A stretch of DNA of 64,000 nucleotides from a bacterium (lineage in GTDB: Bacteria; Patescibacteriota; Minisyncoccia; UBA6257; GWB1-50-10), in the NCBI GenBank assembly GCA_027310365.1, contig DAIDAY010000001.1, forward strand, positions 4,142 through 68,141, given 5' to 3'. This document shows positions 1,070 through 43,053 of this stretch, one piece after another; position 1 is the stretch's first letter; each line of letters begins with the position of its first letter. The position numbers were made by a program, and so were the translations under genes. Below the pieces are notes generated by a model that was not told the origin of the DNA, ran no database searches, and saw only the letters and a program-made list of their open reading frames with translations.

Positions 1070-1864
1070 ATGGACGCAACGCACCGAGTGCGTATGCGTA
1101 CTATTTCTAAGGGGATGAAATATTCTCATCTCAGTGAGACGGTATCGGTGAAGACCGTCTCGGAAAAAGGAAACGTCGGCATGTTCCACATTGAGGGGCT
1201 TTACACCGGTTACGGTACGACGCTCGGGAACGCGTTGCGGAGAGTGCTCCTCTCGTCTTTGCCGGGAGCAGCTATCACGCAAGTGAAGATTAAAAATGTC
1301 GACCACGAATTTTCAACGCTCCCCGGCATGGCCGAGGACATCGTTGAGTTTACGTTGAATCTCAAAAGAGTCAGGTTTTATTTCACGGCCGACGACCCGC
1401 AGACTCTCGCTTTGAAATTCAAAGGCGAGGGTGAAGTGACGGCGGGCGACATCGACGAGAACACGTTCGTGAGGGTTTTGAATAAGGATTTGCGCTTGGC
1501 GACCATGACGAAAAAGGGAGCCGACATGGAGGTGGAATTGGTGGTTGAAAAAGGCTTGGGATACGTCGTCGCCGAATCGAGAAAAATGGAACGGCTGTCG
1601 GTCGGAACAATCGTCCTGGATTCCATCTTTTCGCCGATTGTGCGGGTTTCTTTCGAAGTTGAAAACATGCGTGTGGGCGACCGGACCGACTACAACCGCC
1701 TGAAGCTTGAGATAGAGACGGACGGATCCATCAGCCCGTCGGAAGCGCTGCACAAAGCCGGGAACGTTTTGAAAGATCATTTCGAAAAAGTTTCAGGGGT
1801 TGAAGTGATAGTTGCCGAAGTTCCGGAAGAAAAGGAAACGAAAGCGGCGAAGAAGAAAAAGTAA
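1070..1864 (+). CDS. rpoA: DNA-directed RNA polymerase alpha subunit, N-terminal domain only; alternative start at 1115
   Basis: Alpha-NTD motifs are present (GYGTTLGNALRRVLLSSLPGAAITQVKI...HEFS...ED, and TDYNRLKLEIETDGSISPSEA near the end). The protein stops after a Lys-rich tail with no alpha-CTD. Confidence 0.85.
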   Translation: MDATHRVRMRTISKGMKYSHLSETVSVKTVSEKGNVGMFHIEGLYTGYGTTLGNALRRVLLSSLPGAAITQVKIKNVDHEFSTLPGMAEDIVEFTLNLKRVRFYFTADDPQTLALKFKGEGEVTAGDIDENTFVRVLNKDLRLATMTKKGADMEVELVVEKGLGYVVAESRKMERLSVGTIVLDSIFSPIVRVSFEVENMRVGDRTDYNRLKLEIETDGSISPSEALHKAGNVLKDHFEKVSGVEVIVAEVPEEKETKAAKKKK

Positions 1865-2088
1865 GGGTTCGATACGCAATCTCAAGCCGAAGGCGTAGAA
1901 ATTGCATCTATCAAACCTTACTCCCGCGCTTCATCTTCGCTATACGGGCAATTAATCCCAATGAATATCAATCAGTCGAATACAAAACCAAACACATTAA
2001 ATTCAGCCACTGTAAGTGTGGGGGTGCTCGCTATTGCAGCTAAAACTCCTGCGTTGCGGATGAGCTGGCCATTTTAGGCAATAACGGC

Positions 2089-6691: not shown

Positions 6692-8071
6692 ATGCAAAAT
6701 CCAGCTGGCGAAAAATTCATAGTTCAAGGAGGGAAATCGCTTGAGGGGAAAATACGGCTTTCGGGCGCCAAGAATGCGGCGACAAAGATACTGATCGCTT
6801 CGCTCCTCACGGATAAAGAATGTGTTCTGGAGAATTTCCCGGAGATCGGCGACACGAAGATTGTTTTGGAACTGTGCGGGATGCTGGGAAGCGCGATAGA
6901 GACAGGGGATCATACCGTGAAGATTCGGACGAGGGAAATCACCAATACGAAAATTTCCGGACTCTCAAGGCGGAACCGGATACCGATCCTCGCGTTGGGC
7001 CCGCTCTTATCGAGGGTCGGCACGGGCGAAGTGCCGGTTGTGGGGGGGGATAAAATCGGTCCTCGGCCAGTTGATATGCACATTGAGGGCCTGAAAACGC
7101 TGAGCGCCGAAGTGGAAACCGATGGAAATTCGTATAAAGCCGGAGCTCCTCATGGCCTCAAAGGCGCTGAAATAACGCTGAAATATCCTTCCGTCGGGGC
7201 TACGGAGCAGATTGTCATGGCCGCCGTCCTTGCGCGGGGGAAAACGATCCTTCGCAACGCCGCCGTCGAGCCGGAAATCATGGACCTTATCAAGGTTCTT
7301 CAGAAAATGGGGGCTATCATCGAACTGGGAACGAACCGCGTCGTCTCCGTGTACGGCGTCAAAAAGTTGAGAGGCTTTAGGCACAAGATTCTGTCGGATC
7401 GGAACGAAGCGGTTTCCTTCGCATGCCTTGCCGTTGCAACATCGGGAAAAATTTTTGTCGAAGGGGCTTTGCAGGAACATCTGATAACGTTTCTGAACAA
7501 CCTCCGGAGAATCGGCGGTGAATACGATGTTGCCGAAAACGGCATATCGTTTTGGCGGACGAGGAATCTGAACGGTATTAAGATTGAAACCGATACCCAT
7601 CCGGGGTTCATGACCGACTGGCAGCAGCCTTTCACCGTTCTTCTCACGCAAGCGGATGGATCTTCCGTAGTTCATGAGACGGTTTACGAAGACCGCTTCG
7701 AGTACGCGAAAGACTTGAATTTAATGGGTGCGGATATTACAGTAGTGAATGAATGCCTGGGTGATTTACCCTGCCGCTTCAAAGATTCCCCCTGTCCGCA
7801 TAGCGCGATCATCAAAGGGCCGACGAAGCTGAGGGGGAGAGAAATAATGGTTCCGGACATCCGGGCAGGGATTGCTCATCTTCTTGCAGCCATGGTTGCG
7901 GAAGGGGAATCGACCATCAAGGGTATCGACGAGATTGATCGGGGATACGAAAGGATCGATGAAAGATTGAGAAGTTTGGGAGCAGACATAGAGAGGAAAT
8001 TCTCAGCGCCAGATTCTAAGCCCTCAATAAATGCCAATGTTCAAAATCATGAATTCAGAAATACCTTTTAG
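6692..8071 (+). CDS. murA: UDP-N-acetylglucosamine 1-carboxyvinyltransferase
   Basis: KFIVQGGKSLEGKIRLSGAKNAATKILIASLLT and the EPT fold are present throughout. Confidence 0.9.
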   Translation: MQNPAGEKFIVQGGKSLEGKIRLSGAKNAATKILIASLLTDKECVLENFPEIGDTKIVLELCGMLGSAIETGDHTVKIRTREITNTKISGLSRRNRIPILALGPLLSRVGTGEVPVVGGDKIGPRPVDMHIEGLKTLSAEVETDGNSYKAGAPHGLKGAEITLKYPSVGATEQIVMAAVLARGKTILRNAAVEPEIMDLIKVLQKMGAIIELGTNRVVSVYGVKKLRGFRHKILSDRNEAVSFACLAVATSGKIFVEGALQEHLITFLNNLRRIGGEYDVAENGISFWRTRNLNGIKIETDTHPGFMTDWQQPFTVLLTQADGSSVVHETVYEDRFEYAKDLNLMGADITVVNECLGDLPCRFKDSPCPHSAIIKGPTKLRGREIMVPDIRAGIAHLLAAMVAEGESTIKGIDEIDRGYERIDERLRSLGADIERKFSAPDSKPSINANVQNHEFRNTF

Positions 8072-8138
8072 TCGTTGTGATTTTTTATTTTGATATTATT
8101 GAGGATTTGGATATTGAGATGTAAGGTTTTAACGAAAT

Positions 8139-9146
8139 ATGTTCACGAAAAAAATAGGCATCGATTTGGGAACCACGAATACGCTGGTTTTTTTGCCCAA
8201 GAAAGGAATTGTCATTAATGAACCGACGGTCGTCGCATTGAGCAAACCAAGCAACGCCGTTCTTGCCGTGGGGGCCGAAGCGAAGGAAATGGTCGGCCGC
8301 ACGCCGGACGACATCGTGACGTACCGCCCGCTGAAAGACGGCGTCATCGCCGAATACTACATAACGGAATCCATGCTCAAATACTTCATCACGAAGAGTG
8401 TTGGAGCATTCAATTTTTGGCGGCCGGACGTGGTGGTTTCGGTCCCGGCGGGCATAACTTCGACTGAATACCGGGCTGTCATCAATGCGGCAAAAGAAGC
8501 CGGCGCAAAGGAAACCTACCCCGTGAAAGAGCCCATTCTCGCGGCTTTGGGCGCGGGCATTCCCATCCACTCGGCGGAAGGCAACATGATCGTGAATATC
8601 GGCGGCGGGACGACCGAGGTCGCCGTGATATCCTTGGGCGGTATCGTGACGTGGCACAGTTTGCGGGTCGCGGGCAACAAGTTCGACCAGTCGATCAGCG
8701 ATTACATCAAGAAAAAGTACAATCTTGCGATCGGCGAGACGAGTTCCGAAAACATCAAAATCAATGTCGGAACGGCACTCCCGACGAGAAATAAAATGGA
8801 GATGAAAATCCGGGGAAGAGATCTCGGTTCCGGACTTCCAAAAGATTTGGTCATCAATTCCAACGAAATCGCCGAGGCAATCAATCAACATCTCCTCGAA
8901 ATCATGAGCGTCGTGCAATCCGTCTTCAACGTGACCCCACCGGAGCTTACGGCCGACATCATGGAAAAGGGCATCATTCTTTCGGGGGGAAGCTCCCAAC
9001 TCCGTGATTTGGAAGAGTTCTTCAAGCGTTCCCTCGGCGTTTCGGCATATACCGCCGAAGACCCAATTCTCTGCGTTGCCAAAGGTACGGCGATGGTTTT
9101 GAGTCACTTGGATGTGTACAAGAGAACATTGTTGAACAAACGATGA
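8139..9146 (+). CDS. mreB: rod shape-determining protein MreB (actin homolog)
   Basis: [36 protein letters not shown] and ILSGGSSQL motifs. Confidence 0.9.
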   Translation: MFTKKIGIDLGTTNTLVFLPKKGIVINEPTVVALSKPSNAVLAVGAEAKEMVGRTPDDIVTYRPLKDGVIAEYYITESMLKYFITKSVGAFNFWRPDVVVSVPAGITSTEYRAVINAAKEAGAKETYPVKEPILAALGAGIPIHSAEGNMIVNIGGGTTEVAVISLGGIVTWHSLRVAGNKFDQSISDYIKKKYNLAIGETSSENIKINVGTALPTRNKMEMKIRGRDLGSGLPKDLVINSNEIAEAINQHLLEIMSVVQSVFNVTPPELTADIMEKGIILSGGSSQLRDLEEFFKRSLGVSAYTAEDPILCVAKGTAMVLSHLDVYKRTLLNKR

Positions 9147-9204: not shown

Positions 9205-9984
9205 ATGGGTACACTTTTGGGTTACGACGACAAATGCGAACTCTTTGAAAAACTCATCAAGGAAGACAACTTAGCCCACGCCTATCTCTTTTATGGCGAG
9301 CCGGAAACCGGGAAGCATTCTTTTGCGAAATCGATTGCGTATCTCCTCGAAGATCGGAAAAAAGCGGAAGGAGCACCTCTGATCGATGCGGTGTTTGTCG
9401 CCGCCGAAGAAGGTAAAACGCTCGGTATCGAGGATGTCGCGAGAATCCAGAAATTTCTCTCTGAGCGCCCGATGGCCTCGAAGAAACGGATGGTTGTCGT
9501 CGACAATGCCGAGTCGCTGACCCGCGAAGCGCAGGGAGCGCTCCTCAAGATCGTGGAAGAACCGCCGAAAACCTCGCTTATTATATTCGTTTCTTCGGAT
9601 TCAAGGAATATCTTTGAAGCGCTTTTATCGCGCATCGAGAAGATATACTTTCCGACGTTTTCCGAGAAAGAAATCGCGAGCGGCTTGGTGAAACAATTAA
9701 AAATCGAAGAAACGAAAGCGGCGAAAATAGCGAAGATGTCTTTCGGACGTTTCGGCCGGGCCGTCAAAATCGCGCGCGGAAAGAAAGAAAGTGGCGAGGA
9801 AGACGACGTTTTGAAAACGATCAATGATGCGATCCTCGCGCGCTACGAAGCTGGCATCGCGAAGAACACCAGGGTGCTGCGATGGCTTCTCGAGCGGCAG
9901 ATGTTCATCAAGAGATATAAACGGTATAATTTAAACATGAAATTACAAAAGAAAGTCGTCGATGCGGTATTAAAAAGCAAATAA
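9205..9984 (+). CDS. holB: DNA polymerase III delta-prime subunit-like AAA+ protein
   Basis: HAYLFYGEPETGKHSFAKSIAYLL (a degenerate Walker A) and VVDNAESLTREAQGALLKIVEEPP are typical of delta prime. Confidence 0.65.
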   Translation: MGTLLGYDDKCELFEKLIKEDNLAHAYLFYGEPETGKHSFAKSIAYLLEDRKKAEGAPLIDAVFVAAEEGKTLGIEDVARIQKFLSERPMASKKRMVVVDNAESLTREAQGALLKIVEEPPKTSLIIFVSSDSRNIFEALLSRIEKIYFPTFSEKEIASGLVKQLKIEETKAAKIAKMSFGRFGRAVKIARGKKESGEEDDVLKTINDAILARYEAGIAKNTRVLRWLLERQMFIKRYKRYNLNMKLQKKVVDAVLKSK

Positions 9985-9990
9985 AGAAAA

Positions 9991-10539
9991 ATGGTACAAA
10001 CTGAAGATATAAAACGGGAAGGAGAAGCGGTTCTCCAGAACCTCAAAAAAGCTTTGTCGGGAGTCAGGACATCGCGTCCCCAAACGGCGCTCGTTGAAGA
10101 CATCAGGGTGGAATACTACGGCCAAACGATGCCGATAAAACAACTCGGCACCGTGGGCGTGCGGCCCCCTCGGGAAATTGACATACAAGTATGGGACCAA
10201 AACGCCGTTCCCGTGATAGCAAAAGCCATAGAATCTTCTTCACTGAAGCTCTCGGCGAATATTTCCGGCAACTCGATTAAGATCAACCTTCCGGAATTGA
10301 GCCAGGAACGGCGGGAAGAGCTCGTGAAGTATGTCAAAAAAATAACCGAAGAACACAAGATCGAAATCAGGCACTTGCGGGACGAGATCAACAAGAAAGT
10401 GCAAACCTCTTTTGATGAGGGGGAGGTCAGCGAAGACCAGAAGTTCAAACTGAAGGAGGGCATTCAAAAGGAGATCGACAAGATCAACGGGGAGGTGGAG
10501 AATCTTCTCGGAGCGAAGATTAAGGAAATAGAAGAATAG
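9991..10539 (+). CDS. frr: ribosome recycling factor
   Basis: LSGVRTSRPQTALVEDIRVEYYGQTMPIKQLGTV...VWDQN matches RRF. Confidence 0.9.
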   Translation: MVQTEDIKREGEAVLQNLKKALSGVRTSRPQTALVEDIRVEYYGQTMPIKQLGTVGVRPPREIDIQVWDQNAVPVIAKAIESSSLKLSANISGNSIKINLPELSQERREELVKYVKKITEEHKIEIRHLRDEINKKVQTSFDEGEVSEDQKFKLKEGIQKEIDKINGEVENLLGAKIKEIEE

Positions 10540-12991: not shown

Positions 12992-13207
12992 CACCGCCAC
13001 ACTTCGCGATATACAACACCTTTACCCCCTCCAGATATTTTTTAAATGAATTCCAAAAACGAAAAGGCAAAGAAGGAAAAGAATAAGCGGAGTGGTAACG
13101 ATGTATCTCCTCCACCCCGTTCTTTCAATACCTGAAAACGATAAGAAATCCCTCCCCCTTCGTCGTGTAGACGACGATGTTTGCTTCCGCCGAAACGAAA
13201 GGGGGAT

Positions 13208-13278
13208 GAACGGATGACATTTCGAATCTCGTGTTCCGCTCCGGGAAACTCCCATGCTTGAGGGCGGAGAGCTTCACG
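13208..13278. repeat. intergenic ~70 nt repeat, copy 1 (ddl-proS gap)
   Basis: Near-identical to 16815..16886. The shared core is GAACGGATGRCATYYCGAATCTCGTRTTCCGCTYCCGGGAARCTCCCRTGYTTGAGGGCGGAGAGCTTCACG. Confidence 0.8.
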
Positions 13279-13309: not shown

Positions 13310-14581
13310 TTGCTAATATCAATGGCAATGAAGCAGTCGGAAATTCTCTTTAAAACACAGAAAACGCCCCCGAAAGATGAGGTTGCGGTGAACGCCCAGC
13401 TCCTGATTAAGGCGAATTTCGTGGATAAACTCATGGCGGGCGTTTATTCATATCTGCCTCTGGGTTTCCGTGTGCGGGAGAAGATAGAAAAAATCATCAG
13501 GAAAGAAATGAACGCACTCGGTGCGGCGGAGATTTTAATGCCGTCGCTCCAACCTAAAGCGATTTGGGATGCGACGGGACGGTGGGAAGGATTAAAGAAA
13601 ATCATGTACCAGTTCGAGGACCATGCAGGCCACGACGTGGGTCTTGCGGTCACGCACGAAGAAGTCGTGGCGAACCTCGCTCAGGGGCTTATCGATTCGT
13701 ACGTTGATTTGCCGAAATCCGTCTACCAAATCCAGGCGAAATTCAGGGATGAACCGCGGGCGAAATCGGGTGTCATCCGAGGGCGGGAATTTACGATGAA
13801 AGATATGTATAGCTTCCACACGGACGAGAAATCGCTCGATGAATTCTACGAAGAGAGCAAAAAAGCATATATCAAGGTTTTTGAACGGTGCGAACTGAAG
13901 GCATACGTGACGGAAGCTTCGGGGGGAGATTTCTCCAAAAGCTTTTCCCACGAGTTCATGGTAGAGACGTCCGCCGGCGAGGATGAAACGTATCTCTGCC
14001 GGCTCTGCGGTTTCGCGCGGAATAAGGAAATCGCCGATTTCAAGAAGGGCGAACGGTGCCCCGGATGCGGAGCAGGTGTTTTGGAAAAAGTAAAAACGGT
14101 GGAGGTGGGGAACATTTTCAAGCTCGGAACCAAGTATTCCGAAGGCGCGAATTTGAATTTCAAAGACGAGAAGGGAAATCTGAGGCCGGTTGTGATGGGC
14201 TCTTACGGCATCGGCATTGATCGCCTGATGGGGACGGCGGTGGAGGTGCACCACGATGACAAAGGAATTGTTTGGCCCCCTGAGATAGCGCCGTTCCAGG
14301 TCCATCTTTTGACGATCGGCGCGGCGAACGAGGAGCTTCAAAAATTCGCCGAGAGCGTATATCATAAGCTTTGCGAACAGGGGGTGGAAGTGCTCCATGA
14401 CGACCGGGTAAAGATTTCCGCGGGAGAAAAATTCTACGATGCCGATTTGATCGGCATCCCGTGGCGGGTCGTTGTGAGCGATCGGATGATGGTGCAAGAA
14501 AAAGTGGAAGCGAAAAAAAGGAACGAAAAGAACTCGAAAGACATGAAACCCAGCGAATTCTTAAAAGTGCTGAAAAAATGA
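13310..14581 (+). CDS. proS: prolyl-tRNA synthetase (short form without the INS editing domain; CxxC...CxxC insertion)
   Basis: Class II motifs are present, and the C-terminus is an anticodon-binding domain. CRLCGFARNKEIADFKKGERCPGCG sits where the bacterial editing insertion would be. Confidence 0.9.
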   Translation: MLISMAMKQSEILFKTQKTPPKDEVAVNAQLLIKANFVDKLMAGVYSYLPLGFRVREKIEKIIRKEMNALGAAEILMPSLQPKAIWDATGRWEGLKKIMYQFEDHAGHDVGLAVTHEEVVANLAQGLIDSYVDLPKSVYQIQAKFRDEPRAKSGVIRGREFTMKDMYSFHTDEKSLDEFYEESKKAYIKVFERCELKAYVTEASGGDFSKSFSHEFMVETSAGEDETYLCRLCGFARNKEIADFKKGERCPGCGAGVLEKVKTVEVGNIFKLGTKYSEGANLNFKDEKGNLRPVVMGSYGIGIDRLMGTAVEVHHDDKGIVWPPEIAPFQVHLLTIGAANEELQKFAESVYHKLCEQGVEVLHDDRVKISAGEKFYDADLIGIPWRVVVSDRMMVQEKVEAKKRNEKNSKDMKPSEFLKVLKK

Positions 14582-16750: not shown

Positions 16751-16814
16751 AATAAACTTCGGATGCGTTTGTGCCACCCCCGCCTGTTCATCCCCGCCGC
16801 CGTGCGGCAGGAAT

Positions 16815-16886
16815 GAACGGATGGCATCCCGAATCTCGTATTCCGCTTCCGGGAAGCTCCCGTGTTTGAGGGCGGAGAGCTTCACG
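16815..16886. repeat. intergenic ~70 nt repeat, copy 2 (mreD-pbp2 gap)
   Basis: See the copy at 13208..13278. Both copies are in the same orientation in non-coding gaps. Confidence 0.8.
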
Positions 16887-16987: not shown

Positions 16988-18838
16988 ATGAAAGATGATT
17001 TGCACTTGAGCGATGTCTTGACCGATAAGTACGTTGAAGAGGATTTCATGGAAGTCCCTTTGGCCGACCAGGCATTCAGGTATTTTCTTCTCGTTGTCGG
17101 CGTCGTTTTTTTGGTTATTGCGGTGCGTTTATTTTACCTCGGCGTTATTCAACACAATTTTTATTCGAATAAAGCTTTGGCGAACGTGAGCGATTTGAAC
17201 GTCGAAGCGGCTCCGCGAGGGATTATCAATGACCGATTCGGAAGCCCCTTGACGGAAAACGTCCCCTTATTCAATGTCTTTGCGACGCCGATTGATCTTC
17301 CGAAGGATGCCGGCAATCGGGAGAATGTTTTGAAAACAGCGAGCGGGATTTTGGGCATTTCCTCTCCCGGCACGACCGGCACGAACCCCAACGACAAGAT
17401 ACTCCTCAAGAGCGGCATCAGTCAGGAAGAGCTGATCAGCATCGCTTCCCAGAATCTTCCGGGGATTGCCATCCTCCCATCGTTCAAGATGATCGATACG
17501 ACGCCCTTGAAATTTTCCCATGTGATCGGTTATTCCTCGCTTGCAACGGCGGATGACATCAAAGCCGACCCGGCATTGACGCCAAATGACACCAAGGGAC
17601 GGACGGGGCTGGAAAGCTTCTACGACAAGTACTTGAGGGGGATTGACGGAGAAAAAAGATATCTCACGAATGCTGCGGGACAGGTGCTGGGGGAAAACGT
17701 CGTCCGGCGGGCCGAGCAGGGGGATACAATCAATACGTTTCTCGATGCGGAATTCCAAAATTATTTTTACGACAGGCTACAGAATACCTTGAATGGCCTC
17801 GGCAGGAATATCGGCGCCGCGATCGCCATGAATCCCCAGAACGGAGAAATTTTAGCACTCTTCAGCATACCTTCATTCGATCCAGGGAATATCGCCGCGG
17901 CTTTGAATGCCCCGTATGAGCCACTTTTCAACCGGGCGGTTTCCGGCCTCTATAGCCCCGGTTCAACCATCAAGCCGCTCGTCGCGGCGGCGGCGCTTAC
18001 CGAAAGCATTTTGGATCCCAGCCGCCAGATTTTTTCCCCGGGATACATCTATGTCCCGAATCCCTACGATCCGACTCGCCCCTCGAAATTTTTGGATTGG
18101 CAGTATCAGGGATGGGTCGACATGTATTCGGCACTCGCAAAATCGAGCGACGTTTACTTCTACGCGGTCGGGGGCGGCTACGGCAATCAAAAGGGTTTGG
18201 GGATCGCGAAGCTCAAAGAATGGTGGCAAAAATTCCTGCTCGACAAAGAAACTGGCATCGACGTCGCGGGCGAGCAAAGCGGTTTCCTCCCCGATCCTGC
18301 GTGGAAAGAAAGGATAAAGCGTTCCATTTGGCGGATCGGCGACACGTACAATGTTTCCATCGGTCAGGGCGATTTGGTGATAACGCCGATCGAACTTTTG
18401 AATTATATCAGCGCCGTTGCGAACGGCGGCAAGCTCTATAAACCGCGCATTGTCGACCGTATCGTTGATTCCGAAGGCCAAACGGTCTTGAAAACAAGTC
18501 CGGAAGTCTTGAGCGATTTAAGCGGTGAAATAGGAAAGTACCTTCCACTCGTGCAAAAGGGAATGGAGGATGCCGTCTCCCAAAGTTACGGGACGGCCTA
18601 CACGCTCCGCGATTTGCCGGTCCAAGTCGCCGCGAAAACCGGTTCTGCGCAGGTATCGAACAACCAAAAAACGAACGCGTTCTTCGTCGGCTACGCGCCG
18701 GCGAAAAATCCTCAGATCGCCGTCGCTATCCTCGTGGAAAACGCCAAGGAAGGAAGTTTGAACGTCGTGCCGGTGGCGCGGGACATATTTCTATGGTACT
18801 ATGAACATCGTCTCAGAAGTCAAAATAATCAAAAATGA
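16988..18838 (+). CDS. mrdA: penicillin-binding protein 2 (class B transpeptidase)
   Basis: An N-terminal TM helix, then the STIKP (SxxK), SSDVYF (SxN-like) and KTGSAQ (KTG) motifs. Confidence 0.85.
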   Translation: MKDDLHLSDVLTDKYVEEDFMEVPLADQAFRYFLLVVGVVFLVIAVRLFYLGVIQHNFYSNKALANVSDLNVEAAPRGIINDRFGSPLTENVPLFNVFATPIDLPKDAGNRENVLKTASGILGISSPGTTGTNPNDKILLKSGISQEELISIASQNLPGIAILPSFKMIDTTPLKFSHVIGYSSLATADDIKADPALTPNDTKGRTGLESFYDKYLRGIDGEKRYLTNAAGQVLGENVVRRAEQGDTINTFLDAEFQNYFYDRLQNTLNGLGRNIGAAIAMNPQNGEILALFSIPSFDPGNIAAALNAPYEPLFNRAVSGLYSPGSTIKPLVAAAALTESILDPSRQIFSPGYIYVPNPYDPTRPSKFLDWQYQGWVDMYSALAKSSDVYFYAVGGGYGNQKGLGIAKLKEWWQKFLLDKETGIDVAGEQSGFLPDPAWKERIKRSIWRIGDTYNVSIGQGDLVITPIELLNYISAVANGGKLYKPRIVDRIVDSEGQTVLKTSPEVLSDLSGEIGKYLPLVQKGMEDAVSQSYGTAYTLRDLPVQVAAKTGSAQVSNNQKTNAFFVGYAPAKNPQIAVAILVENAKEGSLNVVPVARDIFLWYYEHRLRSQNNQK

Positions 18839-19296
18839 GCGATAATTACTTAACTCAGGAGCGGTACGACGAGTTGAAGGTCGAACTAAACAGCTTGAAA
18901 ACCGCTGGCCGGCAGTCGGTTGGCGAGCGCTTGCGCCACGCCAAAGAACTGGGCGACTTGTCGGAAAACGCCGAGTATCAGGCAGTCAGAGAGGAACAAA
19001 ATCTTTTAGAAAAGAAAATAGCTGATTTAGAAGATTTATTGGAGAATTCGTCGATCATCAACAAGGAAAGCGGCGGGGCGACCGTGAAAATTGGTTCCAA
19101 CGTTACGATCAAAAAAAGCGGCGGCGAAGCCGTGACCTACACGGTCGTGGGATCGAGCGAAACCGATCCGGCGAAGGGCTTGATTTCCAACGCCTCGCCT
19201 CTTGGCAAGCAGCTCCTCGGTAAAAAAATGGGAGACGTGATCGTCATAGAGGCGCCGAAGGGAAAAAACGAGTACGCTATCCTGAAGATAAACTAA
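18835..19296 (+). CDS. greA: transcription elongation factor GreA
   Basis: A coiled-coil N-terminus (ELGDLSENAEYQAVREEQ) is followed by the FKBP-like C-terminus. Confidence 0.9.
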   Translation: MSDNYLTQERYDELKVELNSLKTAGRQSVGERLRHAKELGDLSENAEYQAVREEQNLLEKKIADLEDLLENSSIINKESGGATVKIGSNVTIKKSGGEAVTYTVVGSSETDPAKGLISNASPLGKQLLGKKMGDVIVIEAPKGKNEYAILKIN

Positions 19297-19332
19297 GGGC
19301 TTGGTACGAACGTCAAGCCTTATCCCACCCCT

Positions 19333-19446
19333 ATGATGCCAACAAATTGATGAATGACATCAAACCAGTCGCTATGAACGCCCTCTTTGGATTAAGTGGA
19401 GGCAGTGGTCGTATAAGTGCGGAATGCTCGTTGTTGTAGCTCACTA
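19333..19446 (+). promoter_or_regulatory. conserved ~115 nt 5' leader element upstream of lysS (copy 1)
   Basis: About 75% identical to 20955..21072 upstream of serS. Shared blocks are ATGATGCCAACAAA, CATCAAA, AAGTGGAGG and GTCGTAT. An imperfect hairpin follows at 19426..19470. Confidence 0.6.
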
Positions 19447-19487
19447 TTCTACGCTACAAACGAGCTTGAATATCGAAACAAAACGGC

Positions 19488-20933
19488 ATGCTCGAGGACA
19501 TCAAAGGAGAAAGGAAACGAAAACTCGACAAATGGGAAGAATTCGCGGAAGGGTATCCGGCCCGCGTGAAGCGGTCCATCACGCTCGGCGAAGCACAGAA
19601 GCGCTTTACGGCGCTCGCGAAATCCAAGAAGAACATGAGCGTCGTGGGGCGCGTTTTTGGTTTGCGCGATCAGGGAGGAATCATCTTTGCCGACGTGCGA
19701 GATATTTCCGGCGCGCTCCAGATCGTTCTCGTGAAAAAGGAAATGGCCGATTTCGGGCGGCTGAAAACCTCGCTCGACATGGGCGATTTCCTTTCGGCGA
19801 CTGGCCATTTCTTCATAACGAAGAAGGGCGAGCGGAGTTTTTTGGCAAAAAAGGCATTGATTATTTCAAAGAGCCTGCGGCCCATTCCGCAGGAATGGTA
19901 CGGCCTCGGCGACATTGAAACAAGATTGAGAAAACGGTATTTGGATTCTCTGGTGAATTCCGCCGTGAGGGATATTTTCGTGAAAAAAAGTCGCTTCTGG
20001 AGGACGGTGAGAGATTTTTTGATCGACGAAGGGTTTTTGGAAGTTGAGAATCCGGTTTTGGAGGCGGTTCCGGGAGGCGCCGAAGCTGAACCATTCACGA
20101 CTCACCACAATGCGCTCAACGAAGATTTCTATTTGAGAATTTCTTTGGAGTTGCCCCTGAAAAAGATGCTCGTCGGTGGATTCGAAAAAATTTTCGAAAT
20201 CGGCCGCATCTTCAGGAACGAAGGAATCGACCGCGAGCACTTGCAGGATTACACGCAGATGGAGTGCTACTGGGCATACGCCGATTACCACGACATGATG
20301 AAGCTCGTGGAGAAGCTTTATAAAAAGCTGGCGAAAGCCGTTATCGGTTCTTTGAAATCGAAAAAGGGAAAGGAAACCATCGATTGGGGCGGAAAATGGA
20401 AGAAAGTCGGATATTTCGACCTCTTCAAGAAATACGCCGGCGTGAATCTTTCGAACGTTTCCACCGAGGATTTGAGGCGAAAGGCGAAAGAATTGAAACT
20501 CGATCTTGATCCAGGCGACAGCAAAGGGAGACTGATTGATCTTATTTACAAGAAAACCGTACGCCCTCATTTGATTCAGCCCTGCTTCCTCGTGAACCCA
20601 CCGGTTGAAATAGAACCGCTCGCGAAGCGCGTTCCCGGTCGTCCGGAGATGGTCGAACGGTTCCAAATCATGGCAGGGGGGACGGAACTGGGAAAGGGAT
20701 TTTCCGAATTGAATGACCCCGTCGATCAAAGGAAAAGATTTGAGGAACAAGTGGCGCTCCGGGAGGGCGGCGACAAAGAAGCGCAAATGATGAATGAAGA
20801 TTTCGTCGAGGCGCTCGAATACGGCATGCCTCCGGCGGCGGGGTTCGGGATGTCCGAGCGGGTTTTCGCAATCATGGTGGATATGGCTATAAGAGAAACC
20901 GTCTACTTTCCGCTCATGAGGAAGGAAAAATAA
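19488..20933 (+). CDS. lysS: lysyl-tRNA synthetase, class II
   Basis: An OB-fold N-terminus plus class II motifs (FLEVENPVLEAVPGGAEAEPFTTHHNAL, FRNEGID...QMECYWAY, GGTELGKGFSE). Confidence 0.9.
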   Translation: MLEDIKGERKRKLDKWEEFAEGYPARVKRSITLGEAQKRFTALAKSKKNMSVVGRVFGLRDQGGIIFADVRDISGALQIVLVKKEMADFGRLKTSLDMGDFLSATGHFFITKKGERSFLAKKALIISKSLRPIPQEWYGLGDIETRLRKRYLDSLVNSAVRDIFVKKSRFWRTVRDFLIDEGFLEVENPVLEAVPGGAEAEPFTTHHNALNEDFYLRISLELPLKKMLVGGFEKIFEIGRIFRNEGIDREHLQDYTQMECYWAYADYHDMMKLVEKLYKKLAKAVIGSLKSKKGKETIDWGGKWKKVGYFDLFKKYAGVNLSNVSTEDLRRKAKELKLDLDPGDSKGRLIDLIYKKTVRPHLIQPCFLVNPPVEIEPLAKRVPGRPEMVERFQIMAGGTELGKGFSELNDPVDQRKRFEEQVALREGGDKEAQMMNEDFVEALEYGMPPAAGFGMSERVFAIMVDMAIRETVYFPLMRKEK

Positions 20934-20954
20934 GAGGTTGATGCGAAATCTCAA

Positions 20955-21072
20955 ATGATGCCAACAAACTTATGAGCAACATCAAAGAAGTCACCATGAG
21001 CACCATACTTGTATGAAGTGGAGGTATGTAGTCGTATGATAAGTACGGGATGCTCAATGTTACGGCTAAATT
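20955..21072 (+). promoter_or_regulatory. conserved ~115 nt 5' leader element upstream of serS (copy 2)
   Basis: See copy 1. A T7 run at 21070..21076 follows this element. Confidence 0.6.
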
Positions 21073-21115
21073 TTTTTCGCCATGACATGAGCTCAAGAAT
21101 TTAGACACCATTGAC

Positions 21116-22387
21116 ATGCTTGATATCAATCTCATCAGGACGAATTCCGATAAAGTCAAAGAAGGCGTCCAGAGAAAGAAAATTGATCCGAAGCTCGTCG
21201 ACAAGTTTCTGCGGTTGGACGATGAGTGGAGGATAAAAACCAAAGCGATCGACGAGCTTCTGGCCGAGCAGAACGCGGTGAGTCGCGAGATGAGCAAGAA
21301 CCAAAGCCAGGATCTCTTGAGTAAGGCACAGCTTCTGAAACAACGCATCGGCGACATCGAAGCTGAACGGGATTCCCTTTCTGTTAAACGGGACGATCTT
21401 TTGAATAAGCTGCCCAACCTGCCTTTCGACAACGTACCGGTCGGCAAGGACGAGACGGAAAATAAAGTCCTGAAGAAAGTCGGCGAGAAGAACAATTTCA
21501 AGTTCAAGCCGCAGGATTACCTGACGCTCGGTGAAAAACTGAAAATCATCAACGTGAAAAAAGCGACGGAAATCGCCGGTTCGCGGTTCGGGTACATCAT
21601 GGGAGATGCAGCCCTTTTGGAATTCGCCTTGGTGCAATTGGCCTTCGACATACTCGGCAAAGAAGGATTCCTGCCGGTTGTACCGCCGGTCATGATCACG
21701 CCCGAGGTATACAAAGAAATGGGGCGGTTAGCCGCCGAACAGAAGGAAGACAAATACTTCCTGCCGAAAGACGAGTTGTACCTCGTAGGAAGCGCCGAAC
21801 ATACCGTGGGACCCTTGGGCCGTGGCGAAGTTTTTGAAGAATCATCGCTCCCGCGGCGGTACGCTGGCTTCTCGACGTGTTTTCGAAGAGAAGCGGGTTC
21901 CTACGGGAAAGACACCAAAGGAATTCTGAGGGTCCACCAGTTCGATAAAGTGGAAATGTATTCCTTCGCGAAGCCAGAAGATTCCGAGAAAGAGCATCGG
22001 TTCCTTCTCGGCATGCAGGAGAAGCTCGTCAGCGCTTTGAAATTGCCGTACCGCATCGTGGAAATATGCACCGGCGACATGGGATGGACCGATGCGCGGC
22101 AATTCGACGTCGAGACGTGGCTGCCGGGCCAAGGCGAAAACGGGGAATACCGCGAAACGCACTCCTGTTCCAACACGACTGATTTCCAGACGAGAGGAAT
22201 CAACGCAAAGTACGAGACCAAAGAAGGAAAGAAAGAGTTCTTGCACGCTTTGAATGCCACGGCCTTCGCGATCGGAAGAATGCTCATCGCCATTATCGAA
22301 AACTACCAGACGGAGAAGGGTGAAATCGAGGTTCCGGAAGCCCTGCGGGATTACCTCGGTAAAAACGTCATCAAGAAGCGTTTATAA
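21116..22387 (+). CDS. serS: seryl-tRNA synthetase
   Basis: The N-terminal coiled-coil arm and class II core ([13 protein letters not shown]..., [26 protein letters not shown]) are present. Confidence 0.9.
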   Translation: [423 protein letters not shown]

Positions 22388-25207: not shown

Positions 25208-25394
25208 ATGAATCCCCGAGCGATGAGGAAGGAATAAACAATGTCGCCTGTCTGAATCCCGAGTCTGCCTCAAAATTCAGTAGGTACTGAATTTTGAGGC
25301 AACGAGGTTGAGTTCGATATTTCGTGGCTTTATTCCAACGAAGAGGGAGGGGGATTCATATGAATGAAAATTCTCCTGATGAAGGGGAAGGTGG
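25208..25394. repeat. ~190 nt intergenic repeat element, copy 1 (contains hairpin 25267..25300)
   Basis: About 85% identical to the reverse complement of 42897..43053. It includes a near-perfect 16 bp inverted repeat (GCCTCAAAATTCAGTA gg TACTGAATTTTGAGGC). Confidence 0.8.
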
Positions 25395-42896: not shown

Positions 42897-43053
42897 CACC
42901 TTACCCCTCATCGAAATGAAAGGAATAAAGCCGTGCAATATCGAACTCAGCATCGCTGCCTCAAAATTCAGTACCTGCTGATTTTTGAGGCAAGATCGGG
43001 ATTCCGACGGGTGATCGTTTACCCATTCCTTCCTTATCGCTCGGGGATTTTAA
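42897..43053. repeat. ~160-190 nt intergenic repeat element, copy 2 (inverted relative to copy 1; hairpin 42958..42991)
   Basis: The reverse complement aligns with 25208..25394 at about 85% identity. Matching blocks include the 16 bp hairpin arms, GAGTTCGATATT, GGCTTTATTCC and CCCCGAGCGAT. Confidence 0.8.

Follow-up and report, generated by a model that had tools for sequence, protein, structure and literature searches.

The window analysed here is the whole 64,000-nucleotide (nt) stretch of contig DAIDAY010000001.1, in which greA (18835-19296), lysS (19488-20933) and serS (21116-22387) lie on the plus strand in the same operon, with spacers of 191 nt upstream of lysS and 182 nt upstream of serS. 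These two spacers hold diverged members of a family of structured RNA elements that occurs in multiple copies, as leaders or between cistrons, in Parcubacteria (Patescibacteria) that are poor in the anti-Shine-Dalgarno (anti-SD) sequence, and the rpoA-rplQ spacer of the same window holds a canonical copy. The evidence supports the leader being a sense-strand, structured, cis-acting RNA, and neither a conserved peptide nor a chance repeat. This RNA family is apparently a new one: the searchable literature yielded no account of the element, and Rfam 15 contained no matching family, either for the window at the gathering score or for the regions 19250-21200 and 1840-2110 at E <= 10. Eight loci with canonical copies gave Rfam matches to tRNA and 16S rRNA only.

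The resemblance between the two aminoacyl-tRNA synthetase (aaRS) spacers was first pointed out in a reading made from the letters of the DNA (the sequence-only reading), and it was confirmed here, with 81% mean column identity and small indels in a MAFFT alignment of 19297-19490 with 20934-21118, and 77% identity over the first 70 nt (19333-19402 against the segment running from 20955 to 21024) with an ungapped repeat finder. The composite block AAGTGGAGG..GTCGTAT..AAGT occurs in the two aaRS spacers only, with no occurrence expected by chance from 100 shuffles. As had been described, the likeness extends to each ATG (19488 and 21116) and then ends, but the true extent of the repeat is wider than was first thought, starting at the stop codon of the gene before it and closing with the start codon of the gene after it (19294-19490 and 20931-21118). 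The imperfect stem proposed at 19426-19470 was borne out, the lysS copy differing from the serS copy by compensatory changes within it. The run of seven T residues at 21070, which had been noted as a T-rich tract before the start codon, sits in the loop of that hairpin and so is not a terminator tail, and promoter and terminator scans of the aaRS-leader region showed no excess. An RNA element had also been preferred to a leader peptide, and this stands, the covarying helices indicating a structured cis-acting RNA of the sense strand; short open reading frames (ORFs) are maintained inside the element. A minus-strand ORF of 45 amino acids (20951-21088) was considered and rejected, being interrupted in the lysS copy and with minus-strand ORFs of the family being shorter (median 18 against 37 codons). 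Relatives of LysS put the window in the Patescibacteria, near Paceibacterota/Jorgensenbacteria, with a best identity of 71-78%, and an exact-protein lookup of LysS matched no record.

Architecture of the element

The full element spans the whole stop-to-start spacer and consists of three hairpins, P1, P2 and P3, each supported by covariation. P1, a hairpin some 60 nt long, has the form TAA(A)GGGCTTTGT...ACAAAACCTT(T)AC, and in 36 of the 56 long copies its first three bases serve as the stop codon of the gene upstream. Compensatory changes were seen in 13 of its 17 pairs among 36 copies, and G.U outnumbers A.C by 47:12 on the plus strand. P2 is a GC-clamped stem (CCCCGC.../...GCGGGG, with many variants) with a median length of 14 base pairs (bp), reaching at least 10 bp in 54 of 56 copies through 26 distinct arm sequences, and it encloses 3-120 nt of unrelated, interchangeable cargo. 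Both P1 and P2 are optional, with short forms of 80-100 nt containing scarcely more than P3. In some copies, at L186 and L155 (L-numbers are labels of comparison loci or contigs from relatives and metagenomes), a sigma-70-like promoter lies upstream instead of a gene, yet P1 is kept, at the 5' end of the transcript.

P3 is a conserved module of 68-74 nt that ends on the ATG, with the layout RTGCTC-X-GGC-TAAATTTTC-TTC-GCC-Y-RGCTC-GAAAATTTAG-AC-Z-GGCATG, and two folds of it are supported. In a structure-blind MAFFT alignment of 89 distinct modules, the closed fold, a 23-bp hairpin made up of RUGC:GCAU, X:Z and a helix between loop and tail, is 95.5% paired, with both sides changing in 16 of the 23 pairs and a covariation score of 0.312 against 0.097 in shuffles; sliding the register lowers the pairing to 25-48%. 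The closed helix is almost wholly Watson-Crick, and the A and U of the start codon lie in its basal pairs (RUGC with GCAU). In the open fold, the inner X:Y helix is 92% paired, and column 15, a bulge when the module is closed, covaries with column 32 (GC in 47, AU in 35). Taken with the covariation of X:Z, this means that X covaries with two mutually exclusive partners. Within the X:Y hairpin, G.U exceeds A.C by 99:13 on the plus strand, and the excess here and in P1 argues for folding of the sense strand. In RNAfold, the full module had its lowest energy in the closed form (mean -23.0 kcal/mol), while the 5' part alone folds to X:Y (mean -16.1 kcal/mol), suggesting that X:Y can form first in transcription and that the closed form is the one in which the module rests. 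At some positions of P3, the sequence is conserved beyond what pairing would need.

Two other models of P3 were tried and rejected. An H-type pseudoknot, in which X:Y and the loop-tail helix would exist together, does not agree with the covariation of X:Z as a continuation of the loop-tail helix, and connecting loops of 0 and 3 nt are too short for stems of 9-15 bp. A conserved upstream ORF (uORF) beginning at the RTG that opens P3 was also discarded, its frame not being conserved (of 89 modules, the frame ends at the TAG in 39, before it in 35 and continues past it in 13).

Internally, 31 of the 56 long copies contain an ORF of at least 30 codons (30-60) that starts with ATG and ends 4-20 nt before the main ATG, most commonly 11 nt before it, at a TAG inside the conserved AAATTTAGAC. 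This uORF runs from the A-rich centre of P2, often from just 3' of the 5' arm, through the 3' arm of P2 and across P3. With P3 held fixed, at least 15 ORF codons upstream of P3 were present in 55% of real sequences, compared with 7.7% after shuffling and 3.6% after reversal of the upstream part, so the reading frame is maintained. P3 is read in two frames among copies, giving either ..VLNFVAKFSSPQxGSKI* or ..CSILWLNFLRHxIGSKI*, with the frame depending on the length of Y, and in our own reading of the sequences GTAGC, a variant of X that would put a TAG in the frame, is avoided by the +1-frame copies. The use of two frames in different copies suggests that it is translation itself and its end point that are conserved, not the peptide, and no match to the uORF peptides was found in Pfam or NCBIfam. 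None of the short copies contains a uORF; in these, the upstream gene ends, with its stop codon, about 10-30 nt short of P3. A motif, (A/G)GTCG(A), was also seen to recur in the central domains of many elements (in the window at 1976-1985, 19368-19372 and 20990-20994, for example), 20-35 nt 5' of the 3' arm of P2 and often preceded by A-rich or GGAG-like sequence; as it falls in differing frames of the internal ORF, it is likely to be a signal at the nucleotide level.

Exactly three copies, W1, W2 and W3, were found in the window with a covariance model run with filters off (E ~1e-11), the next match having E = 0.16. W3 was found with a profile built from the 3' part common to the window aaRS copies and those of L025. 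It is the canonical full-length copy on the plus strand, running from the rpoA stop (1862-1864) to the rplQ start (2089-2091), and its P3 scores 62.6 bits (E = 8.7e-12). Its P1 is a 60-nt hairpin (1862-1921), supported by family covariation, the base of which pairs the stop-codon region with CCTTAC, and its P2 (1922-2023) is a long-range stem of 1922-1932 with 2013-2023, including G.U pairs, around a variable A-rich centre. An ORF of 38 codons plus stop, MNINQSNTKPNTLNSATVSVGVLAIAAKTPALRMSWPF* (1961-2077), leads from the P2 centre across P3 (2024-2091) to a TAG 11 nt 5' of the rplQ ATG.

Whilst also family members, the two copies at the aaRS genes are more diverged. W1 (19294-19490, plus strand; P3 model 60.4 bits, E = 2.8e-11) extends from the greA stop (19294-19296) to the lysS start (19488-19490). 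A direct reading of its sequence gives a short P1 hairpin, TAAGG-G-CTTG / CAAG-CCTTA, at 19294-19322, which includes the greA stop and is homologous to the family P1. Its internal ORF (19350-19439) has 29 codons and a stop, MNDIKPVAMNALFGLSGGSGRISAECSLL*; it comes into P3 in the +1 frame, and a TAG inside X cuts it off. The W1 P3 module (19424-19490) is composed of X at 19426-19440, the loop at 19441-19452, Y at 19453-19465, the tail (S') at 19468-19477, Z at 19478-19487 and the ATG at 19488-19490, and has a weak loop-tail helix of 5 bp and no TAG at the usual place. W2 (20931-21118, plus strand; P3 model 64 bits, E = 4.2e-12) extends from the lysS stop (20931-20933) to the serS start (21116-21118), with degenerate P1 and P2 and an intact P3. 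An ORF of 22 codons plus stop, MISTGCSMLRLNFFRHDMSSRI* (21036-21104), with GGAGG 11 nt 5' of its ATG, crosses P3 and ends at the conserved TAG, 11 nt 5' of the serS ATG. In the W2 P3 module (21050-21118), X lies at 21052-21066, the loop, with the T run, at 21067-21078, Y at 21079-21092, S' at 21095-21104, Z at 21105-21115 and the ATG at 21116-21118.

Comparison among copies also gave observations on the modules themselves. The arms of P1 and P3 are alike in direct orientation (...TTTGT..C.AAATTTTC ... GAAAATTT.G..ACAAAA..., as in window 1860-1921 and the P1s of other loci), and the P3 model matches P1 weakly (E = 0.16), so that the two end hairpins look like paralogous modules. Between L112 (773-1014) and L180 (oriented 8064-8307), the P2 arms are identical and the centre of about 80 nt is an exact reverse complement, reflecting either a DNA inversion between the arms or cargo inserted in either orientation. 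At L130 (1920-2314, minus strand), the P3 tail is split by an insert of about 80 nt, and Z-GGCATG still abuts the next start codon; the product of that downstream gene, beginning MSRSLKKGPYVD, we take to be ribosomal protein S19.

Occurrence, gene context and spread

A metagenome scan with a degenerate pattern derived from six copies (three from the window and three from L025) returned at least 120 stretches, and the samples with matches include groundwater from Hainich. The counts that follow refer to the matches listed, among which there are about 100 strong copies, with 104 nhmmer matches (E < 1e-3) at 84 loci and two or three copies at 16 of these loci. All copies found, and all strong matches, are in sense orientation. 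Of 99 matches reaching the end of the model, 96 stop no more than 4 nt from the ATG of an ORF on the same strand, which in 91 cases is at least 50 codons long or runs off the contig, and a co-directional ORF ends upstream of 86 of the 104, mostly 180-240 nt away. The element is thereby registered on start codons. Ribosomal proteins account for 42 of 78 downstream genes and comprise at least 27 different ones, an enrichment of ribosomal-protein operons of around eightfold if some 6-7% of the genes in a small Candidate Phyla Radiation (CPR) genome are assumed to encode ribosomal proteins. The other downstream genes are mainly housekeeping (NusB, SecY, RpoA, SecDF, DnaJ, SSB, MraW and others) and include a class II (D/K/N-type) aaRS; in the metagenomes, about 70 different gene families are preceded by the module. 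GreA, LysS and SerS follow copies in the window and L025. The same pattern gave a single match in a scan of viral contigs, which was judged to be due to chance.

At the greA-lysS-serS genes themselves, the spacers of nearly all of 80 related genomes are 2-25 nt in length or overlapping, and other relatives (L001, L005, L007 and L019) hold unrelated inserts there. Among the 80, only L025, with a LysS that is 64% identical, has related sequence at these genes, with three copies, one 5' of greA and one in each of the greA-lysS and lysS-serS spacers. The distribution is thus patchy, and it is also duplicative, the centre common to W1 and W2 being found nowhere else in the examined data. This patchiness, together with the unique centre of W1 and W2, the inversion between L112 and L180 and the partial decay of W1 and W2, suggests that the element spreads among stop-start junctions, which on present sequence data it appears to do. 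The data leave standing both a mainly tolerated selfish element and a regulator recruited by the host.

Other insertions were observed at or near the same places. In two close relatives, L001 (7435-7585) and L005 (7408-7557), the lysS-serS spacer carries an insert of some 140 nt, AT-rich and unrelated, whose inverted ends are of the TTTAGGATTT type, and the junction looks like a hot spot for small insertions. A different repeat, resembling a miniature inverted-repeat transposable element (MITE) and having terminal inverted repeats of about 20 nt (GATCCCGCACTTCCGCGAA...TTCGCGGAAGTGCGGGATC), is nested in or beside elements at L129 (6229-6659, minus strand), L165 (2-382), L100 (about 9800-10050) and L174, and splits the P3 tail in L129 and L165.

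With regard to translation initiation, no enrichment of SD-like motifs was found upstream of genes in the carrier loci, and SD usage was near chance in all groups when carriers were compared with non-carriers by a crude ORF-based measure. A complete 16S rRNA gene, the sole one linked to the element, lies at 2290-3911 of L095, a contig with two elements. Its 3' end (...GUGGACCAAUUAAACU) contains no CCUCC, and the 3' terminus, reading ...GUGCGUGGACCAAUUAAACU, is without the CCUCC anti-SD. This fits the published loss of the anti-SD motif in a subgroup of Parcubacteria, in which initiation is not understood (Tsurumaki et al., 2022; PMC9297842). Pairing of the tail sequence AAUUGG with the 3' end of the L095 16S rRNA was examined and rejected, as it amounts to 6 nt only, Z covaries with X, and AATTGG lies upstream of 9 of 608 other genes, which is no enrichment.

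The window contains two further repeats. A second repeated block of about 75 nt, with 85-90% identity between its copies at 13203-13278 and 16810-16886, is unrelated to P1-P2-P3 and has no Rfam match. It lies 30-100 nt 5' of a class II aaRS gene (13310-14581) and of a PBP2/FtsI-type transpeptidase gene (16988-18838), and minus-strand short ORFs in both copies encode VKLSALKHGSFPE, a common peptide that probably merely reflects the conserved DNA. An inverted pair of about 125 nt, at 25211-25336 and 42922-43049, is separated by 17.6 kb and is 85-96% complementary, each arm having a perfect 38-nt palindrome, TTGCCTCAAAATTCAGTAGGTACTGAATTTTGAGGCAA. One arm is 5' of an HrcA-like gene and the other is between lepA and a DivIC-like gene; the pair may represent an operator, a repeat or the two ends of a segment that can invert.

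Proposed mechanism and alternative explanations

The element may be best understood as a spreading intercistronic element that carries a translation-driven switch at the start codon, a reading given a probability of around one half. During transcription, the G.U-rich X:Y hairpin would form first, leaving the A/U-rich tail and the AUG free. Alternatively, X:Z and the loop-tail helix would together give the more stable 23-bp closed hairpin that buries the AUG, and this closed form is predicted to block SD-independent initiation and so repress translation. A ribosome on the internal uORF would melt the closed form, and in short forms the upstream gene, with its stop about 10-30 nt before P3, may act as the uORF. 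The ribosome would then terminate over the tail and AUG, and X and Y would re-pair behind it, so that the start site is held open for re-initiation or fresh initiation. Such an element could spread among the stop-start junctions of packed, highly expressed operons, as the relay that it carries would let downstream translation survive the insertion.

Several findings weigh against this start-codon switch. Simple repression sits uneasily with so stable a closed hairpin ahead of ribosomal-protein genes that are highly expressed, and the hairpin might serve for processing or for the binding of a protein instead. The closed helix, excluding pair 1-82, has 20 G.U against 42 A.C and therefore no G.U excess, meaning that it does not by itself identify the folding strand. 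Around 40% of long copies have no long uORF, these being a class with a structured GGCGAAGCC-type P2 centre and copies with a plain-hairpin P2, so a relay by the uORF is not a trigger that could apply to all copies. The W1 ORF ends within X, and W1 has a degenerate loop-tail helix and TAG. Part of the ORF signal is also inflated, since two of the three P3 frames are open from sequence conservation alone. Lastly, no terminal inverted repeats or target-site duplications were seen at the element ends, and no RAYT or TnpA transposase was found to be linked, although no systematic search was made, so the case for mobility comes solely from the distribution.

The alternative that survives best, though we regard it as unlikely, is a purely selfish interspersed DNA repeat, such as a MITE, a repetitive extragenic palindrome or bacterial interspersed mosaic element (REP/BIME) or an IS200/IS605-derived palindrome-associated transposable element (PATE). 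The hairpins would then serve single-stranded DNA mobilisation or protein binding with no role as regulatory RNA, and the orientation, the registration on ATG and the open frame would be those of copies that survived selection in compact operons. This would agree with the patchy presence at orthologous junctions, the several copies per genome (W1 and W2 look like an intragenomic duplication), the modular build with optional P1 and P2 and short forms, the inverted P2 cargo of L112 relative to L180 and the paralogous hairpins at the two ends, as well as with the nested or adjacent repeats and the partly decayed appearance of W1 and W2. It does not agree well, however, with a sense orientation in all copies and the 96 of 99 ends on ATG. 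The covariation of both alternative partners of X would be needless for a DNA recognition hairpin, and a sense-strand G.U excess, an open frame kept at a fixed end distance from the ATG and the ribosomal-protein enrichment, with its assumed gene share, likewise count against it. The lack of terminal inverted repeats and target duplications counts against a transposable repeat too.

A somewhat less probable alternative is that P3 is an operator for a trans-acting factor, be it a small RNA, a small-molecule ligand or an RNA-binding protein, ribosomal or other, which would bind GGCUAAAUUUUC and its partner AAAUUUAGAC and shift the equilibrium between X:Y and X:Z as part of a translation-machinery regulon. 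The sequence conservation at some P3 positions, the bias of downstream genes towards ribosomal proteins, NusB, SecY, RpoA, GreA and aaRSs, and a bistability like that of a riboswitch expression platform are all in its favour, and an operator would also serve the copies that have no uORF. There is, however, no conserved multi-helix core of the kind expected of an aptamer, everything 5' of P3 being variable or optional, and the loop-tail helix and stop codon explain much of the conserved sequence. The occupied junctions also vary by genome, with close relatives lacking the element, which would be unusual for a core regulon.

Operon punctuation, which we consider improbable, would have P1, P2 and closed P3 cut by RNase III or another endonuclease, with P1 staying behind as a 3' stabiliser of the upstream message and the downstream cistron receiving a short leader or none, as would suit SD-independent initiation. 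A succession of three helices of 14-25 bp, hardly separated by linkers, from stop codon to start codon, in an SD-poor lineage whose sole linked 16S rRNA lacks an anti-SD, would be consistent with such cutting. The element is also found directly after promoters, with P1 at the transcript 5' end (L186 and L155). Cutting would nevertheless leave unexplained both the pairing of X with Y as well as Z and the open ORF across P3, and no known self-cleaving ribozyme or RNase P substrate family matches.

That the element is instead the gene for a functional small protein of about 40 amino acids, with the RNA structure incidental, is very improbable. Over half of the long copies do keep an ATG-initiated ORF of 30-60 codons, but the two P3 frames give unrelated C-termini, the N-terminal parts cannot be aligned, about 40% of long copies and all short copies have no such ORF, Pfam and NCBIfam gave no match, and the substitutions are compensatory for pairing, not synonymous. 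The divergent T-box-like or tRNA- or amino-acid-sensing leader specific to aaRS genes, which the sequence-only reading had put forward and to which two of the three window copies preceding aaRS genes and the alternative helices beside the start codon would lend themselves, can be dismissed: the gene-context survey already refutes it, the module also preceding rplQ, greA and some 70 further gene families, the Rfam T-box model (RF00230) has no match at either the gathering score across the window or E <= 10 in the two regions, no Stem I, specifier, antiterminator bulge or terminator was found, the T-box 14-mer, which that reading had itself failed to match, is missing from the three window copies and the alignment of 89 modules, and the variable part of the lysS and serS copies, where a specifier was to be sought, is hypervariable, non-homologous cargo across the family. 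A search for further copies in front of aaRS or amino-acid genes had been suggested, and the third window copy precedes rplQ. An occurrence at many unrelated loci, or short expressed ORFs within the conserved block, had been named as observations that would tell against the first proposal; the element does occur at many unrelated loci, and the short maintained ORFs inside it are counted as the second of these.

Returning to the translation-driven switch, a bolder and rather doubtful extension may be considered, in which, in the subgroup of Parcubacteria without an anti-SD, the cassette would be a portable 'stop-to-start adaptor', its relay uORF and ribosome-driven two-state hairpin replacing both SD pairing and direct stop-start coupling. 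It would thus be the lineage's own means of initiating and co-ordinating the translation of internal cistrons, and, given its concentration in ribosomal-protein operons, ribosomal-protein synthesis would depend on ongoing translation capacity. Should the translation-driven switch itself hold, a large, covariation-rich RNA family would be added from the poorly understood Patescibacteria. It would unite features that are usually separate, namely a leader ORF, a repeat of the interspersed kind and a bistable switch at the start codon, and would offer a testable handle on SD-independent initiation and polycistronic coupling, as well as a natural ribosome-driven RNA switch. The carriers seem to lack the anti-SD, and the element resides in the most conserved operons of the cell. 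For annotation purposes, it accounts for 'gaps' of 80-240 nt and spurious hypothetical genes of about 40 amino acids in CPR ribosomal-protein operons.

Comparison with known systems

The closest systems by mechanism are leader-ORF attenuation of the erm/cat type, the sequestration coupling of rpmI-rplT and MS2, and the doubly covarying folds of the hok type, while REP/BIME and enterobacterial repetitive intergenic consensus (ERIC) repeats are the closest by distribution. The T-box (RF00230) is alike, for the two window copies at aaRS genes only, in being an aaRS leader with alternative helices, but all of its defining parts are missing and the range of genes is unrelated. Ribosomal-protein leaders (the S4 alpha-operon pseudoknot, S8/spc, L4/S10, L20 and the Rfam r-leader candidates) are also structured RNAs at start codons, some of which trap the initiation region. 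They differ in that a single module here precedes at least 27 different ribosomal-protein genes and others, with no rRNA mimicry identified and no match in Rfam 15.

REP/BIME, ERIC (intergenic repeat units, IRU), MITEs and PATEs are, like the element, multicopy, palindromic, modular mosaics in transcribed operon spacers, patchily present and nested with repeats. Dispersed copies with a patchy presence were found here as well; terminal inverted repeats, target duplications and occurrence in either orientation were not seen at the element ends. Unlike these repeats, the element is strictly sense with its 3' end on the start codon (96 of 99 among the matches listed), and it has a bistable helix, a maintained ORF, an enrichment in ribosomal-protein operons and no GTAG-type REP signature.

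The mRNAs of hok/sok-type type I toxins were reportedly described by Gultyaev, Franch and Gerdes in 1997 as having metastable co-transcriptional hairpins and 'coupled covariations'. The likeness lies in one segment with two exclusive partners, an early hairpin set against a stabler fold that closes the start, and several copies per genome. The element, however, has no conserved hydrophobic toxin peptide and no evident antisense RNA gene, and is predicted to control a downstream housekeeping gene instead of its own ORF.

In translational attenuation of ermC, cat and cmlA, there is similarly a short leader ORF, alternative helices hide or expose the downstream start, and the ribosome on the leader decides between them, a step that for the element would be carried out by the ribosome on its uORF. 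An ORF that lies upstream of and overlaps the switch is present in the same 31 of 56 long copies, and in W3 and W2 and, truncated, in W1, and mutually exclusive helices are found of which one hides the initiation region (X:Z with loop-tail, against X:Y). The element differs from these systems in having no evident motif for inducer-dependent stalling and no conserved stalling peptide, given its two frames. Its ORF traverses all switch segments and ends about 11 nt before the AUG, and there is no SD. It is also multicopy, lies in housekeeping operons and carries two extra hairpin modules, with no kinship in sequence or in Rfam. Finally, in rpmI-rplT of the E. coli initiation factor 3 (IF3) operon and in the MS2 coat-replicase pair, a buried downstream start is melted by a ribosome translating upstream, as would occur in the element. 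There the sequestering partner and the melting ORF belong to the upstream gene, whereas the element carries both on a portable cassette of about 200 nt, with the anti-sequestor, Y, built in.

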